A stretch of 43,465 bases of DNA. Source: a virus. Lineage: Duplodnaviria; Heunggongvirae; Uroviricota; Caudoviricetes. Each line of letters opens with the position of its first letter. Position 1 is the stretch's first letter. Both the position numbers and the translations under genes were made by a program. The notes under the pieces were generated by a model that was given only the letters and a program-made list of their open reading frames with translations, was not told the DNA's origin and did not search any database. Of the stretch, positions 277 through 43,123 are shown one piece after another. The stretch is taken from IMG/VR virus record IMGVR_UViG_2563366823_000003. One strand, given 5' to 3'.

Positions 277-936
277 TTATTGCAATTGCACAAGAGTCAG
301 TTCTCCCCCAAAGACAGCACCGGTATCAATATAATGCAGGTTGCCAATATCCACGCGATGGCGCAAAGGTGTATGACCAAACCAGAAATGATCAGCACCT
401 GCAATTCCCTGCCCTTTTTGGCGTTCACCTAATCGCGAGCGGCTCCACAAGACCTGATGCAAATCGACGTCCTTTTGCCATTCATAGACATCATCTGGAT
501 AATCGGCATGAGCAATAACATGTTTGCCGGTGCGACTGTGTAATTCAAGAATAAAGGGCAAATGCTGACATTTTTCCAGCGCCGTTTTCGCTTGTTTCTG
601 TTGATTATCTGCCAGCGCAATAAACCAGTCGCCGCCATTTATCAACCATAAAGACATCTGCCGGGATGCCAGCGCATCCATCGCCATCTGTTCATGATTG
701 CCTCTTACCGCACGAACCCAATGTTGTTCCAGTAACTGCAGGCAACGTAAACTTTGCGGCCCACGATCGATAACGTCTCCCACTGAGATAAGTAAATCTC
801 GCCACGGATCAAAACGACAATGCCATAATTTGCGGCGCAACTGCTCAAGACAACCGTGTATATCGCCTGAAAGCCAGATATGTCGCCATTGATGACCCGC
901 AATTCTCTGATAAACGGGCGCAGGCTGTTTCATCAA
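277..936 (-). CDS. pphA: serine/threonine protein phosphatase 1 (calcineurin-like metallophosphoesterase)
   Basis: 218-aa product with GDIHG, GDVIDRG and GNHE metallophosphatase motifs; near-identical to E. coli PphA/PrpA as recalled. Confidence 0.9.
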   Translation of the reverse strand: MMKQPAPVYQRIAGHQWRHIWLSGDIHGCLEQLRRKLWHCRFDPWRDLLISVGDVIDRGPQSLRCLQLLEQHWVRAVRGNHEQMAMDALASRQMSLWLINGGDWFIALADNQQKQAKTALEKCQHLPFILELHSRTGKHVIAHADYPDDVYEWQKDVDLHQVLWSRSRLGERQKGQGIAGADHFWFGHTPLRHRVDIGNLHYIDTGAVFGGELTLVQLQ

Positions 937-25359: not shown

Positions 25360-25902
25360 TCAAGCTATTTTTTGAGCAAATGATTCTCGCATGGGAATAT
25401 ATAGGGCATACTCAGCAACAGCCAACCAATTAGCAATTCGCTTTTCGCATGTGCTAAAACACCACTCAGGATGTGCATCATTTAGCAATTCAGCCATTTT
25501 GCGCTTAGCCATCCCCCGTCCTTCATACCGTTGCCGGAGGACACTAATCAATCCAGGATGCTCTGCCAGCACCTCACTTATGACTCTATCAATACATAAC
25601 GCCTCTGCATCAGTACAATGCGCCAGCCAGGTCTTTTGCTTGCCATTGATCATCTCTCGCAAAAACGCTTCCAGCTCAGGTTTCTCTATTCCCGCTTTTT
25701 TCATCCTGCGCAGGGCTTCATTGACGGCTGTTTTCGTCAATTTTTGGGATGCCAGCAACTGGTTAAACATATTTCCCGTCTTACCGCCGCCAATATACGA
25801 CCAGCGCCCCCACATGCGCAGTTTTCCCTGAATCCAGACACTTTCCAGCGTGGTGAGACGAAGGTGTTCCCCGCTTTTGCCTGTATTTGTTGGGTAAATC
25901 AT
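25360..25902 (-). CDS. late-gene antiterminator Q
   Basis: ORF upstream of the lysis cassette; ATG 25902 with AAGGAAGG upstream and ATGA overlap with the preceding gene; family from recall. Confidence 0.6.
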   Translation of the reverse strand: MIYPTNTGKSGEHLRLTTLESVWIQGKLRMWGRWSYIGGGKTGNMFNQLLASQKLTKTAVNEALRRMKKAGIEKPELEAFLREMINGKQKTWLAHCTDAEALCIDRVISEVLAEHPGLISVLRQRYEGRGMAKRKMAELLNDAHPEWCFSTCEKRIANWLAVAEYALYIPMRESFAQKIA

Positions 25903-26189
25903 AAATAACCTTCCTTTCTCCAGATTTCTTGTGTGCGAAAAACACCTTCTGCATGCATCAGGCGTAATTCTTCTTTGGTGTAATCGCTGTTTTTTACCCG
26001 CCCGTCGATTAAATCGTGGCATGAGCTACAGGCAATCGCTGCCTGCATATCGTGTGGTTTTGTCGCTGTTCCGCACGTCCCCGCCAGCCTGTAATGCGCC
26101 AGCACAGATGTTTCGGGATTGTGATTGCAGTAGCCAGGAATTCTGACGGTGCACATCTGCCCCCGCGCCGCTTTACGTAAATCCACCAT
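25899..26189 (-). CDS. YbcO-like protein (DUF1364), putative Zn-binding nuclease
   Basis: 96 aa; MVDLRKAARG...RIPGYCNHNPETSVLAH...KPHDMQAAIACSSCHD resembles recalled DLP12 YbcO. Confidence 0.6.
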   Translation of the reverse strand: MVDLRKAARGQMCTVRIPGYCNHNPETSVLAHYRLAGTCGTATKPHDMQAAIACSSCHDLIDGRVKNSDYTKEELRLMHAEGVFRTQEIWRKEGYL

Positions 26190-26788
26190 TACGCAAACTC
26201 CAGTAACTGCGCGGCCACATTTTCGACTTCCTCCGGAGAGGAAAATTTACGGAACAGTATCCAGTTCCACAGCACATTCAGTACAGATTTATAAACCTGC
26301 TGAAACTCGGTTTCGTCCATGTTCGCAAATGCGATAGATTTTGCCCTGCGCCCACGACTACCGTCCGGATAAAAATGTTCGGTGTAAAATCCGGCCTGAA
26401 TGGTTACCCATTCGCGAAAAGCGTCAAAGGACTTGAGTAAGGCCGTATCCCGGGTTCTGCAAGTCGCAACGGTGTTAAGGTATTGCTCTGCGGCATCACT
26501 CAGGGCTGGCGTATGTTCCCGACCTACTGATTCGCACAGGAAATCAACGAAACCGGACACCAGTTCTCGTTCGCGAGGCGTGATCGCCCCACCGACCGGA
26601 GTCCAGTAATCGAATCCCAGTTGCAGGAGTTTGAAAAAACGCTTGTGGAATGCGTAGTTACGCACTCGCTTAAATTCCGCGTGTATCCACTCACCTATTT
26701 TGATTTGATGTAAAAAATCGCAACTCTCCGGCGTCGCCGGGAGAAGTAATCCAGAAGAGGTTTGTTTGACCAGTTGTATATGCGCCAT
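26189..26788 (-). CDS. phage protein of the nin region (DUF1367-like)
   Basis: 199-aa ORF upstream of the ybcO-like gene; family by recall only. Confidence 0.45.
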   Translation of the reverse strand: MAHIQLVKQTSSGLLLPATPESCDFLHQIKIGEWIHAEFKRVRNYAFHKRFFKLLQLGFDYWTPVGGAITPRERELVSGFVDFLCESVGREHTPALSDAAEQYLNTVATCRTRDTALLKSFDAFREWVTIQAGFYTEHFYPDGSRGRRAKSIAFANMDETEFQQVYKSVLNVLWNWILFRKFSSPEEVENVAAQLLEFA

Positions 26789-26859
26789 CGTAGTTCTCCG
26801 CTGGCGCAGTAGAATGGGTGTTCAGCCCGTTATGTAGTATACCAGAATTAATGCCAATA

Positions 26860-27111
26860 CTAACAGGATGCTCTGACTCGCAATTCATCCTGCAGTTTAT
26901 CATTTCCCATAATGTCACTTACCCTCATCGGTAAAAAAATTGCCTTTCGACCATTACGATACATCATTGATTTTTTGGTTTCAGGGAAGTAATCCATTTC
27001 GACTATAACTGACAGGTCATCACGACGTATGACTGCATATTTGCTACTAAATGGTTTCTTTATTTTTTCCACGATGCCTCCAGGTTTATAAGTACAAACG
27101 GTTATATCCAC
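26860..27111 (-). CDS. hypothetical protein (83 aa), AT-rich
   Basis: ORF in the low-GC region next to hokD; no recognisable motifs. Confidence 0.35.
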   Translation of the reverse strand: MDITVCTYKPGGIVEKIKKPFSSKYAVIRRDDLSVIVEMDYFPETKKSMMYRNGRKAIFLPMRVSDIMGNDKLQDELRVRASC

Positions 27112-27379
27112 ATAGAGACAAAAATATTAATCTGAAAAATATTTATTTCACGTCGTATATTTGATTATTTAATGTGCAGGTGCAATGACTTTTATTTTTT
27201 GTTGTGTATATAATCAAATATATGGTTATTTTTCACCCTGCGCATTCAGCGCGCAACAAAAAACCCGCCGAAGCGCTGAGGGATCCCCATAAATCAGCGC
27301 TGAAGCGGGTTAAGTGCGGGTGCGTTGAGGATGCCTGACTCATCAGAGGTGGCGAGGGATTTCTCCCTCGCCTGGTCTC

Positions 27380-27535
27380 TTACTCCTCAGGTTCGTAAGC
27401 TGTGAAGACAGCGACCTCCGTCTGGCCGGTTCGGATTCGTACCTCGCAGAGGTCTTTCCTCGTTACCAGTGCCGTCACTATGACGGTTAAACAGATGACG
27501 ATCAGGGCGATTAACATCGCCTTTTGCTGCTTCAT
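27380..27535 (-). CDS. hokD: Hok/Gef-family membrane toxin (type I toxin-antitoxin)
   Basis: 51 aa MKQQKAMLIALIVICLTVIVTALVTRKDLCEVRIRTGQTEVAVFTAYEPEE matches recalled HokD/RelF; hairpin-rich 3' UTR and in-frame upstream extension. Confidence 0.8.
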   Translation of the reverse strand: MKQQKAMLIALIVICLTVIVTALVTRKDLCEVRIRTGQTEVAVFTAYEPEE

Positions 27536-27677
27536 AGCCTGCTTCTCCTTGCCTTTCGGCACGTAAGAGGCTAACCTACATGTGCAAAGCATGAAATTGG
27601 CCTCAGATTAATGTTAAGCGTCTTGCCGGACGCGTAATGTTAACTGGGGCTTTTCTCTATCTGCCTTTGGTGTTCGT

Positions 27678-27717
27678 GCCCGAGGCAGATAGCCTCAAGC
27701 ACCCGCCGTGATTCTAC
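27678..27717. repeat. left copy of a ~40-bp imperfect direct repeat flanking the AT-rich cargo island
   Basis: gcccgaggcagatagcctcaagcacccgccgtgattctac versus gcctgagacagacaacctcaagcacccgcagcaattctac at 29698-29737, ~82% identity. Confidence 0.6.
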
Positions 27718-27942
27718 AAAAACATTACCCACCTTTCCAGCAATTCACAACAACTCCATGCAAATAGTAAGTAGAATAATAAGTTATTAGTATTAGCAAT
27801 TTACTTAGTTTCTAATTTGTGCCAATGATTTTCATTTTTGCATGAAAAATACCTTAACATTTTATATTTACTTACTATTTGTAAGCCCCATCAGTTCTTT
27901 CTGATGGCGGCTGGTATTTCAGTTCCAGATATAGTATATGCT

Positions 27943-28971
27943 TTACGCCTTAATAGGGTTAATCACATTTCCGCTATCCGTACCATAGTATTTTTTTGTA
28001 GTCATGCCTTGTTTATAATAATCATTTAACAGTTTGAGAAAGTTTCTTCCTTGCCTCTCATCTTCTATGACTAATTTACCATGCTCATTGGTCTTAAACT
28101 CTTCGTTCTGAAACATTTTTAACACATCATTCATAGCTTGAACATCATTCTTTTCCAGAGCCGTATGGTTACCTTTCTCAGCGATATGAGTGAGAATTTT
28201 TCTCAGTGATGGCTTATGAAGAATAGCTTGTTCAATAACATCTAAACCTTCAATAAGATCAAGTTCTTTAATTGTATTTAATGTTTTTTGTGCAGCTTCT
28301 GTAAACTCAACCTCCAAGCCTACAATAGCCTCAAAACTTTTCTTATGAAATACATAAAATTGATCTTTTATATAAATACAATCGATTTTGTCATCAAAAT
28401 TGACTGCGCTGCCATCAAATGATCTTAACTCTTTATCTGTTTTATCAAACAAAGCGAATACGCGCTGAGTCATATTTTGTGGTTCATTTGTTGTGACTTT
28501 CCCCCTGCTGATTTTTCGGAAAGAATAAGTGACGTCAGCCCCCTTTTGGACTTTAATACAATAGGCCCACAAATCATTCTGAACCTCAGCAAGAGAGGTA
28601 AGTACAACTGGTTTATCATTCTTTATATCGTTATTAATAACTTTTGAAAACGATATCGCGTTATTCATAGCATAGGCATAAATCTTATTGTCAATATCAT
28701 CATCAATAACAGTATACTTTTTCATCACAATATCATCTTTCGAAGCATGAGAAATAATCTGGTTTGATAAAGTATACTTAAAAAATTTAGCAATATCTGG
28801 AGCGATAGGAGCTTTAATGATTTTAAAATCGAATTTATCAACAACTCTTGCGGTTCTACTCATACCCGCTTTAAGATGTCTAGTAATGAAATACAACGAT
28901 ATTTTCGCCGCATCATCATCCTTAAGTTGCTCAGCATACTCTAATAATTCTTCAAGCTTTAACATTTTCAT
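27943..28971 (-). CDS. 342-aa soluble hypothetical protein; candidate defence effector (KwaB-like?)
   Basis: Very AT-rich ORF; its ATG overlaps the stop of the upstream membrane ORF (ATGA); Kiwa assignment is hypothesis only. Confidence 0.55.
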   Translation of the reverse strand: MKMLKLEELLEYAEQLKDDDAAKISLYFITRHLKAGMSRTARVVDKFDFKIIKAPIAPDIAKFFKYTLSNQIISHASKDDIVMKKYTVIDDDIDNKIYAYAMNNAISFSKVINNDIKNDKPVVLTSLAEVQNDLWAYCIKVQKGADVTYSFRKISRGKVTTNEPQNMTQRVFALFDKTDKELRSFDGSAVNFDDKIDCIYIKDQFYVFHKKSFEAIVGLEVEFTEAAQKTLNTIKELDLIEGLDVIEQAILHKPSLRKILTHIAEKGNHTALEKNDVQAMNDVLKMFQNEEFKTNEHGKLVIEDERQGRNFLKLLNDYYKQGMTTKKYYGTDSGNVINPIKA

Positions 28972-29583
28972 TCCTTATGGGATTCAGCATAAAAAAGTTT
29001 TGGGCCCACGTCCTCAACATCAAGAAGATCATCTTCCTCCAAATACTTGGATTTAGTCAAAACCATACCAGTGCGTTTTTTGTCGCTTTCTAAATCCAAA
29101 TATGTAACTTGATATAAAGTATAATTAATACTTATTGTAGGATTTATAAGTATCATGCTTGAATTAATATATATTAAAGCCGTTACCGTTAACAATATTG
29201 CTATAGGTATAACATTAGTTAAATGTGGATAGGTCCTGAAATACAAACGGAATTATATATGTAAAAAGATAGCTTATTGATTCATTGTTTTTATTTTCAA
29301 TATCTATAACTCTTACAGTTCTACCACTAGTGGCGCATCGACGTTTTATATTTTTTAAAAAAATTGTTAATCCTACAATACCAAATAATGATAATACACC
29401 AATGACACTGACCGCGCCAAAGTATTTAAAGAAAATAGTTAATGATTCAACACTTATACCTTTCCAATTTAAATAGCTTCTATAAGTATACAATTGCACA
29501 AAACACATGATAAAGAATAGGGGAAGGTATGACACTATAAATAGCGAAACTCTAGCACCTAAATGTAGTTTATTTACTCTCAT
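28968..29583 (-). CDS. multi-pass membrane protein (~205 aa, 4 TM) apparently split by a frameshift; KwaA-like?
   Basis: Two overlapping ORFs (29215-29583 and 28968-29252) each with two hydrophobic helices; second frame has no ATG at its head (TTG). Confidence 0.45.
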
Positions 29584-36171: not shown

Positions 36172-36571
36172 ATTCATTTCCTTACTGGTTGTGTGAGAAC
36201 TCCAGTAAAGATACCACCAAAGCCCGGAGGTGGTGAAATAAAACCGGGCACAACACGAAGGCGCATTTCTGGTATCCATAAAGAGTCGGTCTTGTCTGTT
36301 AAATTTAAATGGTGGGAGTGCGCCTCCGGTTGTAAATAACGACATTGCTTTGTGTAGTCTTTGGCGGCATCAGTTCTACTCCGTGGCTGCCCTGCCGCCC
36401 CTTTTTAAAGTGAATTTTGTGATGCGGTGAATGCGGCTAAGCGCACGCGGAACAGTTAAAAGCATCAGTGTTATGGGTGGATTATCCGGCGTTAATTGTT
36501 AACTGGTTAACGTCACCTGGAGGCACCAGGCACCGCATCGACAAAATTCATTTGTAAAAATGGAGATAATT

Positions 36572-40913: not shown

Positions 40914-41120
40914 ATGACAAAAATTATGAGATATGACGATGTTAAACCATGTCCGTTTTGTGGTTGTCCATCTGTTACGGTGAAAGCAATTTCAGGATAT
41001 TACCGGGCAAAATGCAACGGATGCGAATCCCGAACTGGCTATGGTGGAAGTGAAAAAGAAGCGCTCGAAAGATGGAATAAACGAACCACTGAAAATATTA
41101 ATGGAGGCGTTCATGTATAA
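40914..41120 (+). CDS. ralR: restriction alleviation protein Lar/RalR
   Basis: MTKIMRYDDVKPCPFCGCPSVTVKAISGYYRAKCNGCESRTGYGGSEKEALERWNKRT matches recalled Lar. Confidence 0.7.
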   Translation: MTKIMRYDDVKPCPFCGCPSVTVKAISGYYRAKCNGCESRTGYGGSEKEALERWNKRTTENINGGVHV

Positions 41121-41301
41121 AATTACTGCTACAATTGAAAAGGAAGGTGGCACTCCTACTAACTGGACAAGATATTCAAAATCTAAACTAACGAAATCAG
41201 AATGCGAAAAAATGCTCTCAGGGAAAAAAGAAGCAGGCGTTTCCAGAGAGCAGAAAGTAAAACTGATAAATTTTAATTGCGAGAAACTTCTGTCATCGTG
41301 A
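41113..41301 (+). CDS. small hypothetical protein (62 aa)
   Basis: ATG 41113 overlapping the lar stop; the track start upstream is non-ATG. Confidence 0.4.
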   Translation: MYKITATIEKEGGTPTNWTRYSKSKLTKSECEKMLSGKKEAGVSREQKVKLINFNCEKLLSS

Positions 41302-41407: not shown

Positions 41408-41689
41408 ATGAATCTTGTGACACTCAAAACTTGGGGAAGACTCAGATATCCGGATAACCCACCATCAATATCAACACTGAGACGATGGGCAAGGAATGGA
41501 AACATTTATCCTGCACCTGAACTACACGGGAGGAGTTACAGGGTGGTTCCGGAGGCTTTCTATATCAACCCAAATAAGGTTGATACCGATATAACACACC
41601 ACCAGCCTAATGGGCGACAAGGGAGAGACAGTCCGTTAATGGAGAAGTTAAAACATGCAGCGGAAAAAATACGATCCCAATTTGCCTAG
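41408..41689 (+). CDS. xis: excisionase (Xis-like)
   Basis: Small basic ORF overlapping the integrase start; AAGAGG 8 nt upstream of ATG 41408. Confidence 0.6.
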   Translation: MNLVTLKTWGRLRYPDNPPSISTLRRWARNGNIYPAPELHGRSYRVVPEAFYINPNKVDTDITHHQPNGRQGRDSPLMEKLKHAAEKIRSQFA

Positions 41690-42731
41690 AAACTTAACAT
41701 ATCGAAGGAGAGACAAAGCATATTACTGGCGCAACCCTCTCACGAAAGAAGAATTTACACTAGGTAAAATTTCAAGAAGAGATGCAGTAGCGCAGGCAAT
41801 TGAAGCAAATCATTATATATACAAAAACTACTCTCCTGCTGCCTTAATTGAAAAGCTGAAAGGGTTCGACTCATTTACTATGGCAGACTGGATTGAACGT
41901 TACAAAACGATTCTTATAAGGAGAAAAGTGTCCAGAAATACTTATAAAATTCGGGTAAATCAACTGGAGACAATAAAAGAAAAATTGGGAGGGATTTTAC
42001 TGACAGAAATAACCACTCGCCATATTGCTGAGTTTCTTGATTTGTGGATTGAAGGAGGGAAAAACACGATGGCAGGATCAATGCGTTCTGTGTTATCTGA
42101 TATGTTCCGCGAGGCCATTGTTGAAGGACGTATATCTCAAAATCCAGTAACGCCAACAAGAGCACCGAAAATAGTAGTTACAAGAGAACGACTGAAACTA
42201 AAGACATACAACTGCATCAGGGAGGCAGCAGATCAACTTCCGGCATGGTTCCCATTAGCTATGGATTTAGCCCTTGTAACAGGACAACGTCGCGAAGACA
42301 TAACGAATATGCGGTTCAGTGATATTTATGATGATCGTCTCCACATCAGGCAAATTAAGACAGGAATGATGATTGCTATCCCCCTGTCACTCAGACTTCC
42401 TGTCGCTGGTCTACGGCTTGGTACAGTAGTTGAACGCTGCCGCCTGGTAAGCCGGGGAGATTATCTAATCAGTGCCGGGATTAGAAAAAACAGCCCTGAC
42501 GGCAGCATTCACCCGGATGGCCTGACAAAAAAATTTGTCGCAGCCAGAAAATTAACAGGTATCCAGTTCAGTGAAAACCCACCAACTTTTCACGAGATCA
42601 GAAGTCTGGCTGGACGATTGTACAAAGAAACATGTGGAGAAGAATTTGCTCAGCGTCTACTTGGCCACACATCGGAGAAGACAACAAAAATGTATCTTGA
42701 TGAGAGAGAAAAAACGTACTTACTGCTCTGA
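41655..42731 (+). CDS. int: tyrosine integrase (lambda Int family)
   Basis: 358 aa; collinear with recalled lambda Int ([40 protein letters not shown] catalytic region); GGAGAAG upstream. Confidence 0.9.
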
Positions 42732-42863
42732 TTTTAACGTAAATGGATTGTTAAATGCATTTTGGTTGTGATATAACCAAAAAAGACCGGAATACAGAAA
42801 TTCGAGTAAATTTCGGGGAATTTCGGGGGAGACGTTTGCAACTGATTGATTTTAAATACAATT

Positions 42864-42898
42864 AAAAAAAGACCGAATACGATTCCTGTATTCGGTCC
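42864..42898. repeat. attR: right copy of the att core inside the sdsR terminator stem
   Basis: aaaaaaagaccgaatacgattcctgtattcggtcc matches 1068-1098. Confidence 0.7.
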
Positions 42899-42966
42899 AG
42901 GGAAATGGCTCTTGGGAGAGAGCCGTGCGCTAAAAGTTGGCATTAATGCAGGCTTAGTTGCCTTGC
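42864..42966 (-). ncRNA. sdsR: SdsR (RyeB) small RNA; antisense RyeA/SraC overlaps on the plus strand
   Basis: Minus-strand gcaaggcaactaagcctgcattaatgccaacttttagcgcacggctctctcccaagagccatttccctggaccgaatacaggaatcgtattcggtcttttttt matches recalled SdsR incl. terminator. Confidence 0.8.
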
Positions 42967-43123
42967 TCTTTAAGAATAGATGACGACGCCAGGTTTTCCA
43001 GTTTGCGTGCAAAATGGTCAATAAAAAGCGTGGTGGTCATCAGCTTAAATGTTAAAAACCGCCCGTTCTGGTGAAAGAACTGAGGCGGTTTTTTATTGGA
43101 AATCAAAAGGCTATTTTAGGTAA

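Follow-up and report, generated by a model that had tools for sequence, protein, structure and literature searches.

A complete set of hok/mok/sok elements around a HokD-type toxin gene in the nin region of a lambdoid prophage

Is a hokD gene carried by a lambdoid prophage a lone toxin gene, as in the relBEF operon of Escherichia coli K-12, or does it belong to a complete RNA-regulated toxin–antitoxin module, and what might it do for the prophage? The question is raised by the virus record IMGVR_UViG_2563366823_000003 of IMG/VR (Caudoviricetes), a 43,465-nt stretch of DNA referred to here as the window, in which a preliminary description, made from the sequence alone, had noted a type I toxin locus of the hokD type. 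We conclude that the locus is very probably an ordinary, complete and apparently functional hok/mok/sok type I toxin–antitoxin module, in which a HokD toxin allele is combined with a leader of the hokW type, and that it occupies the nin region of a Qin/lambda-like prophage, where a role like that of hokW-sokW in prophage Sp5 is most likely. Both the identity of the module and its RNA logic are well supported, and its activity in this host would follow by analogy with its relatives.

The toxin gene lies on the minus strand, which the preliminary description had left unnamed: it is an open reading frame (ORF) of 51 amino acids (27535–27380) with its own Shine–Dalgarno (SD) sequence, AAGGAG (27550–27545). 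The product matches the Pfam family HOK_GEF (PF01848) over the full model (positions 1–42) with an E-value of 1.2e-23 and 82.9 bits, the cut-off being 22 bits. Moreover, the peptide is identical to HokD of K-12 and shares 47 of its 51 residues with HokW, and the gene is annotated hokD by RefSeq; the earlier assignment to the Hok/Gef family, as a hokD-type toxin, stands. The identical HokD peptide is toxic on overexpression and has been used as a toxic control (bioRxiv 10.1101/2025.08.07.668861). The in-frame, mok-like upstream extension that had also been proposed is readily recognized as a 70-amino-acid ORF (27592–27380, minus strand), which starts at an ATG at 27592, shares the hok stop codon and is preceded, 8 nt upstream of its start, by the SD sequence GAGG (27604–27601). 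It is identical to MokW at 65 of 70 residues, and the arrangement of the two frames is that annotated as mokW/hokW in phage 933W. As expected of a mok gene, the upstream frame overlaps hok and has its own SD sequence, and translational coupling between the two is predicted.

A search with the 70-residue mok product found relatives in at least 594 contigs of IMG/VR, the best 80 of which were kept (all 70 residues matched, 97–100% identity); conservation is counted below over 81 near-identical loci. A UACG tetranucleotide, the editing motif of TadA, is formed within hok by the UAC codon of Tyr47 and the G that follows it (27397–27394, minus strand), and is kept in 79 of the 81. Additionally, comparison with strain CEA224S reveals a mosaic breakpoint within the 3' end of hok (27386–27403): that strain is nearly identical to the window from 27404 through the Kiwa genes upstream of the module (five differences up to 29700), and it has another allele of the Hok C-terminus and downstream DNA unrelated to the window.

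A putative hok promoter (27739–27711, minus strand) comprises the −35 element TGGAAA (27739–27734), a 17-nt spacer and the −10 element TAGAAT (27716–27711), and scores 9 out of 12 in a consensus scan. The −10 hexamer marks the upstream end of the homology common to 933W, strain APEC-O117H42 and 80 IMG/VR loci, and the −35 region varies by locus. The predicted full-length hok mRNA, of ~449 nt, extends from 27704 to 27256 on the minus strand; its +1 was placed at 27704 from the start of the Rfam model considered below and from the R1 hok mRNA, and its 3' end was set after the U-run of the terminator. Pairing of positions upstream of 27704 with the 3' region is not kept across loci.

The 5' end of this mRNA is formed by the translational activator element (tac), GGGUGCUUGAGG (27693–27704, minus strand), the partner of which is the fold-back inhibitory element (fbi), CCUCAA(C)GCACCC (27318–27330, minus strand). 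In the unconstrained minimum free energy (MFE) structure of 27704–27256, the two form a helix of 12 bp with one bulge (p = 0.97–1.0); the duplex, at −21.1 kcal/mol, is equalled in 5 of 2000 dinucleotide shuffles of the 3' untranslated region. The same pairing was recovered independently by an inverted-repeat search, as a perfect 8-nt long-range repeat (27316–27323 versus 27699–27706). The bulged C of fbi (27324) varies freely among loci and tac is invariant in 80 of 81; indeed, both elements are essentially invariant in these close relatives, and hence give no covariation signal there. Compensatory changes came only from the comparison with R1-type plasmid loci, in which the U27701–A27321 pair of tac/fbi is replaced by C–G, and from the 3' stem described below. 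This long-range helix, missed by the preliminary description, is the true fold-back; the two hairpins to which that function had been given are not.

The alternative conformations expected of a hok mRNA are likewise encoded. In the full-length fold, ucb, the anti-SD box (27646–27652, minus strand), pairs through about 27650–27646 with the mok SD region, and its helix is one of the Rfam consensus. In an RNA truncated just beyond the 9-bp stem (27704–27335), tac pairs with ucb (27652–27646), and the mok SD, GAGGC (27604–27600), pairs with dcb (GCCUC; 27567–27571, minus strand), which overlaps the sok −10 region on the opposite strand and provides the third helix of the Rfam consensus. A nascent RNA of 40 nt forms an 11-bp metastable hairpin between 27702–27692 and 27686–27676. 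In silico, the full-length, truncated and nascent MFE structures are thus all three of the conformations published for R1 hok mRNA, for which the tac/fbi/ucb/dcb model was set out (PMC9841398).

The preliminary description had also drawn attention to a perfect 9-bp stem just past the hok stop codon (27351–27372, minus strand). This stem-loop does exist, with arms 27351–27359 and 27364–27372 and a GAAA loop of 4 nt, but it corresponds to the protective stem-loop at the end of the processed mRNA, rather than to a fold-back element; most likely it is the terminal hairpin of the 3'-processed hok mRNA. The pair 27368/27355 is A–U here, G–U in K-12 and 21 loci, and G–C in 933W and three loci, which represents a compensatory change. 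In R1 hok, substitutions that weaken the equivalent stem-loop abolished toxicity, for which the authors invoke susceptibility to exoribonucleases (PMC9841398).

On the plus strand, we predict a Sok-like antisense RNA of ~71 nt (27584–27654), its coordinates being transferred from the sokW misc_RNA of 933W. It is identical to sokW at 64 of 71 positions, all seven differences falling within the 5' tail, and K-12 sokC is annotated with the same start offset relative to mok. The RNA is predicted to fold into a single-stranded 5' tail of 15 nt, a long hairpin and a terminal UUUU (−28.6 kcal/mol), and its complement on the hok mRNA spans both the mok SD (27604–27601) and the mok start codon (27592–27590). 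A promoter of its own is recognizable at 27549–27577 on the plus strand, with −35 element TTGCCT (27549–27554), a 17-nt spacer and −10 element TAACCT (27572–27577), and is near-invariant in the 81 loci. Over the 40 nt that precede the start of Sok, the window does not differ from sokW of 933W/Sp5. An antisense Sok with its own promoter, as the family demands, is thus predicted at the level of sequence. In Sp5, mutation of the sok −10 element with primer YO-421 abolished the antitoxin effect, and Northern blotting revealed sokW RNA (PMC8621323).

The Rfam family RF01794, named 'sok', was ruled out as the antisense gene, as its match (27704–27530; 113 bits, gathering score 59) is to the hok-sense strand and stops at the hok AUG; on the plus strand it scores only 16.8 bits. 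Its helices are the tac stem, the Sok-target hairpin and the SD/dcb hairpin, and the open conformation is the Rfam consensus structure. RF01794 models the hok mRNA leader, not the antisense RNA; a 'sok' model that matches the sense strand can mislead, and the strand of its match should not be taken as that of the antisense RNA.

The module is widespread, and its regulatory elements are invariant or nearly so in the 81 loci. Of 5,426 complete E. coli genomes, 4,725 contain the region by megablast, under the annotation hokD, and 79 phage records match it as well; the leader is present in 4,206 of the 5,426 (~78%), with a median of two copies, and most E. coli carry 2–9 related copies. In the genomes sampled, RefSeq has no annotation over the leader. 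The conserved block among loci with differing flanks runs from 27717 to ~27302, which we take as the boundaries of the module. The best phage match over the whole query is PP818812.1 (90% coverage, 96.1% identity), and its label, 'Actinobacillus phage vB_Apl-pPE4', names an unexpected host for sequence that is otherwise typical of E. coli lambdoid prophages.

Variation is concentrated in the Sok-target loop. This segment, which is also the 5' tail of Sok (27585–27599), is the variable spot of the module, with at least five alleles among the 81 otherwise near-identical loci, and every allele keeps a YUNR motif; CUUUGCA, CUAGACA and CUGAACA are loop alleles. Franch et al. are said to have found, in 1999, that YUNR loops speed antisense pairing. 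The diversity of the loop might result from selection that keeps the several hok/sok copies of one E. coli cell insulated from each other.

The long hairpin that the preliminary description had placed in the 3' region is real as a structure (27262–27311), but the fold-back role proposed for it is not: it is the intrinsic terminator of the module (27256–27311, minus strand), enlarged by the remnant of an insertion sequence (IS) end. The hairpin (27311–27262) is followed by a U-run; its arms, 27262–27279 and 27294–27311, are 18 nt long and 83% complementary, and enclose a loop of 14 nt (−29.4 kcal/mol). K-12 and APEC-O117H42 have a simple terminator past fbi, CCCGC-UUCG-GCGGG-U5, whereas in the window 32 nt are inserted in the terminator loop (27270–27301, minus strand). 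A generic terminator scan limited to loops of 3–8 nt found nothing here, because the inserted 32 nt put the hairpin outside that limit. The insertion is absent from K-12, APEC-O117H42 and 933W; it is 95–97% identical to DNA directly following IS4-family transposase pseudogenes in 17 E. coli genomes, and this DNA ends in AGCGCTTATG, as does the right end of the K-12 IS186. Given this match, the insertion is what remains, on its own, of the right end of an IS186-like element. The insertion carries an 8-bp inverted repeat of its own and shifts the energy of the hairpin from −11.8 to −29.4 kcal/mol, but leaves fbi, the U-run and the tac/fbi fold unaltered. Among the loci fetched, only one other, the IMG/VR locus L005, has it in common with the window, and this is the same prophage, since it is 100% identical to window positions 25883–29092.

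IS damage to hok loci is common, as illustrated by IS186 after K-12 hokC and by ISKpn8 in the leader of the plasmid locus L087. Beyond the terminator, the spacer between it and rem contains an AT-rich 16-nt inverted repeat (27156–27171/27207–27222; 94% complementary, 35 nt apart), and this block is also kept in APEC-O117H42. Two plus-strand promoter-like sites (27132–27161 and 27185–27214) point into the 3' end of hok; in this AT-rich region, four such sites were found for 1.7 ± 1.4 expected.

Following the paradigm of the family, with each RNA element checked in silico, we propose that the module would operate as follows. Transcription from a weak promoter (−10 at 27716–27711) would yield the ~449-nt mRNA from near 27704, the nascent transcript keeping tac in its metastable hairpin. 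The full-length RNA, with tac paired to fbi and the mok SD sequestered by ucb, would be neither translated nor bound by Sok. Slow trimming of the 3' end as far as the 9-bp stem-loop (27372–27351), the candidate end-point hairpin, would remove fbi, a step for which the unusually stable terminator would have to go first; tac would then pair with ucb, and the mok SD would enter its hairpin with dcb, which would present a YUNR loop. The constitutive but unstable Sok would pair across the mok ribosome-binding site and block translation of mok, and hence of the coupled hok, and the Sok/hok duplex would be marked for RNase III. Should Sok not be replenished, Hok would be made, insert into the inner membrane and kill or lyse the cell.

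What, then, would the prophage gain? Most likely the module acts as hokW-sokW does in Sp5, albeit this is less certain than its identity: Sok would be lost after prophage induction, and Hok would advance lysis and raise phage release. In Sp5, HokW is membrane-localized and toxic, and sokW, expressed from its own promoter, neutralizes it; after mitomycin C treatment, Sok disappears and HokW appears in a RecA-dependent manner, ~1 h before the endolysin, and deletion of hokW-sokW delays growth arrest and halves phage release (PMC8621323). Once the prophage is induced, we suggest, sense-strand transcription that continues beyond the early operon could disturb the sok promoter, which is convergent with it. 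Antisense expression and toxicity, the two points on which the preliminary description had let its own reading depend, appear largely answered for close relatives, HokD being toxic and sokW both detected and neutralizing.

Several observations weigh against an active module with this role. Transcription, 3' processing, Sok expression and toxicity rest on homology, and a complete set of elements is no guarantee of activity. A generic promoter scan misses the sok promoter, which scores 7 out of 12 and has a −10 element, TAACCT, that is a poor match to the consensus; for this reason, its identity to the validated sokW promoter was used. Moreover, fbi is not at the very 3' end, and the stabilized terminator beyond it could slow or block the activating 3' trimming. 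Finally, the nin-region location seen here is not that of the 933W module, which is found at the far right end of its phage, and the Sp5 role may not transfer.

It is possible, although doubtful, that the locus is structurally complete but effectively inactive in its host, as native chromosomal hok loci are reported to be: a silent passenger, in which the terminator stabilized by the IS remnant may play a part by preventing activating 3' trimming. The terminator hairpin does indeed lie 3' of fbi and exceeds the common form in stability by 17.6 kcal/mol; rifampicin did not activate chromosomal hokA, hokB or hokC (bioRxiv 10.1101/2025.08.07.668861), and damage to hok loci is frequent, with IS186 past hokC, ISKpn8 removing the leader of L087 and relE replacing that of K-12 hokD. 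However, all regulatory elements are intact and near-invariant across the 81 loci, neither fbi, the U-run nor the tac/fbi fold is altered by the insertion, and YUNR is always preserved in the variable target loop, which suggests selection on a working RNA–RNA interaction; moreover, hokW-sokW, with 93% identity, does work in the prophage that naturally carries it (PMC8621323). A further idea, which we regard as very unlikely, is that the IS186-like remnant is no neutral scar, such that its 17.6 kcal/mol of additional stability slows trimming, and, separately, that the Sok-loop alleles reflect insulation. If the remnant acted in this way, the timing of Hok activation would be retuned or disabled in this prophage lineage, and the locus would be a naturally occurring case of a type I toxin switch modulated by an IS footprint.

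Stabilization of the prophage would amount to post-segregational killing applied to a prophage: cured cells would lose the unstable Sok, keep the stable hok mRNA and die. This was the founding function of hok/sok on plasmid R1 (bioRxiv 10.1101/2025.08.07.668861; PMC9841398), the RNA elements that it requires (a folded, stable mRNA plus a short antisense RNA transcribed from a promoter of its own) are present, and hok genes are ~four-fold enriched in prophages (bioRxiv 10.1101/2025.08.07.668861). We nevertheless consider it unlikely, as the native chromosomal hok loci gave no post-segregational killing (bioRxiv 10.1101/2025.08.07.668861), and deletion of hokW-sokW from Sp5 had no effect on growth absent induction, its phenotype concerning lysis and phage release, not prophage retention (PMC8621323). 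Additionally, because most E. coli carry several related copies, a cured cell could be rescued by Sok made from another copy that has the same target allele.

Abortive infection, in which a lytic phage would stop host transcription, Sok would decay and Hok would kill the cell before the phage cycle is completed, is quite improbable: in the account cited by PMC8621323, hok/sok of R1 cut the plating efficiency of T4 by 42% and plaque size by ~85%, but this effect is weak and needed a high copy number, hok is not enriched beside defence systems genome-wide (bioRxiv 10.1101/2025.08.07.668861), PADLOC has no model matching Hok, and, although the slot upstream of hok holds variable cargo (Kiwa here, other cargo in APEC-O117H42), such that the module might act alongside the adjacent Kiwa as a prophage defence islet, the neighbouring kwaA is frameshifted in the window. 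An arrangement of the K-12 relBEF type is ruled out, as the leader is intact, homology to K-12 starts only at 27549 and, as the preliminary description had rightly noted, relBE is not adjacent, a Kiwa pair lying upstream here and relE only in K-12.

The reading that we prefer, a module acting as hokW-sokW does in Sp5, places it in a prophage, as the preliminary description had supposed, and this location is borne out by a lambdoid gene set throughout the window. This is a near-complete lambdoid prophage, with genes for an integrase, a RecE-like exonuclease, a repressor, a replication protein, a Ren-like protein and a Q antiterminator, as well as for endolysin, terminase, portal, major head protein and tape measure. 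The hok gene is in the nin region, between the replication genes and Q, on the strand shared by the replication-to-Q genes; downstream of it are rem (26860–27111), a DUF1367/ydfU-type gene (26189–26788) and the Q-like antiterminator (25360–26022).

Directly upstream of the module is a Kiwa anti-phage pair (27943–29583, minus strand). KwaB (27943–28971, minus strand) matches its PADLOC model at 1.5e-159, and KwaA, which is intact (204 amino acids) in 156 E. coli genomes, is split here into two ORFs (29583–29215 and 29246–28968, minus strand) by a single additional T near 29224 that those genomes lack; the frameshift is either a real inactivating mutation or a sequencing error. Further afield, the prophage encodes two more small RNAs: DicF (36349–36400; 63.5 bits) and RalA (41119–41297; 213 bits), which is the antitoxin in the type I system RalR/RalA. 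The integrase gene (41655–42731) adjoins the chromosomal RyeA/SdsR small RNA pair (42860–43004), which lies just beyond it, suggesting that the prophage integrated next to that locus.

The module is already known and very common, and its system is among the most thoroughly studied of the RNA-regulated toxin systems; it departs from the ordinary only in the 32-base IS remnant in the terminator. Standard annotation names only the toxin gene ('hokD'), leaving mok, Sok and the RNA switch unannotated. The IS-end remnant and the variable Sok-target loop are small leads on how such modules are tuned and how cross-talk between them is avoided.

Among the named systems, hok/sok (parB) of R1 has the same architecture and RNA logic: fbi near the 3' end, ucb and dcb, mok, and a Sok promoter inside the mok/hok overlap. 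Its module is plasmid-borne, with a proven role in post-segregational killing, and its toxin is only ~43% identical to that of the window. In place of the GGGUGCUUGAGG of the window, R1 has the tac GGCGCUUGAGG, which in R1-type loci pairs with an fbi ending ...AAGCGCC. The R1 hok transcript is 398 nt long. In the R1-type locus L084, which encodes the R1 Hok peptide, fbi is at +387..397; in these loci, the best tac partner ends at ~+397 and fbi is essentially the 3' end, whereas in the window a terminator hairpin lies past fbi. The plasmid locus L087 could not serve for the tac comparison, as ISKpn8 removes its leader and no tac motif is found. In hokC (gef)/mokC/sokC of K-12, a different paralogue, mok and hok likewise share one reading frame, and the start annotated for sokC is on the opposite strand, 8 nt into mok; IS186, 20 nt after the stop codon, has removed the 3' fold-back region and renders this locus unusable for the fbi comparison.

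The closest likeness is to hokW-mokW-sokW of the Stx2 phages 933W and Sakai prophage 5 (Sp5; Takada et al. 2021, PMC8621323); with 933W, nucleotide identity is 93.4% over 410 nt (window 27308–27717), from the hok −10 element to just past fbi, in a region annotated mokW, hokW and 'SokW antisense RNA' (Plunkett 1999 annotation). The sok promoter, tac and fbi of 933W/Sp5 are identical to those of the window, mok is in the same frame, and Sok has the same 16-nt hairpin extension relative to the Rfam consensus. The differences include four substitutions at the C-terminus of the toxin (T45V, A46D, P49S and E51K), seven changes within the initial 16 nt of Sok, with corresponding changes in the target loop, and the GC hairpin terminator past fbi, which 933W lacks.

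The comparison with K-12 hokD (relF), in the relBEF operon of the cryptic prophage Qin, is of a different kind. The toxin is the same, the DNA is near-identical from 27549 to the terminator, and the order downstream is as in the window (hok, rem, the DUF1367/ydfU-type gene and Q). Upstream of 27549, which is only 14 nt upstream of the hok ATG, K-12 has relB-relE, entered at the 3' end of relE, which lies 71 nt upstream of hokD; tac, ucb, the mok start, the Sok target, the sok gene and its promoter are all absent, as is the 32-nt insertion. A literature search for an explicit statement on this hokD rearrangement yielded nothing useful. Overall, the module is complete in the window, and the textbook hokD of K-12 is a truncated derivative of this complete form, in which relE has replaced the whole leader.

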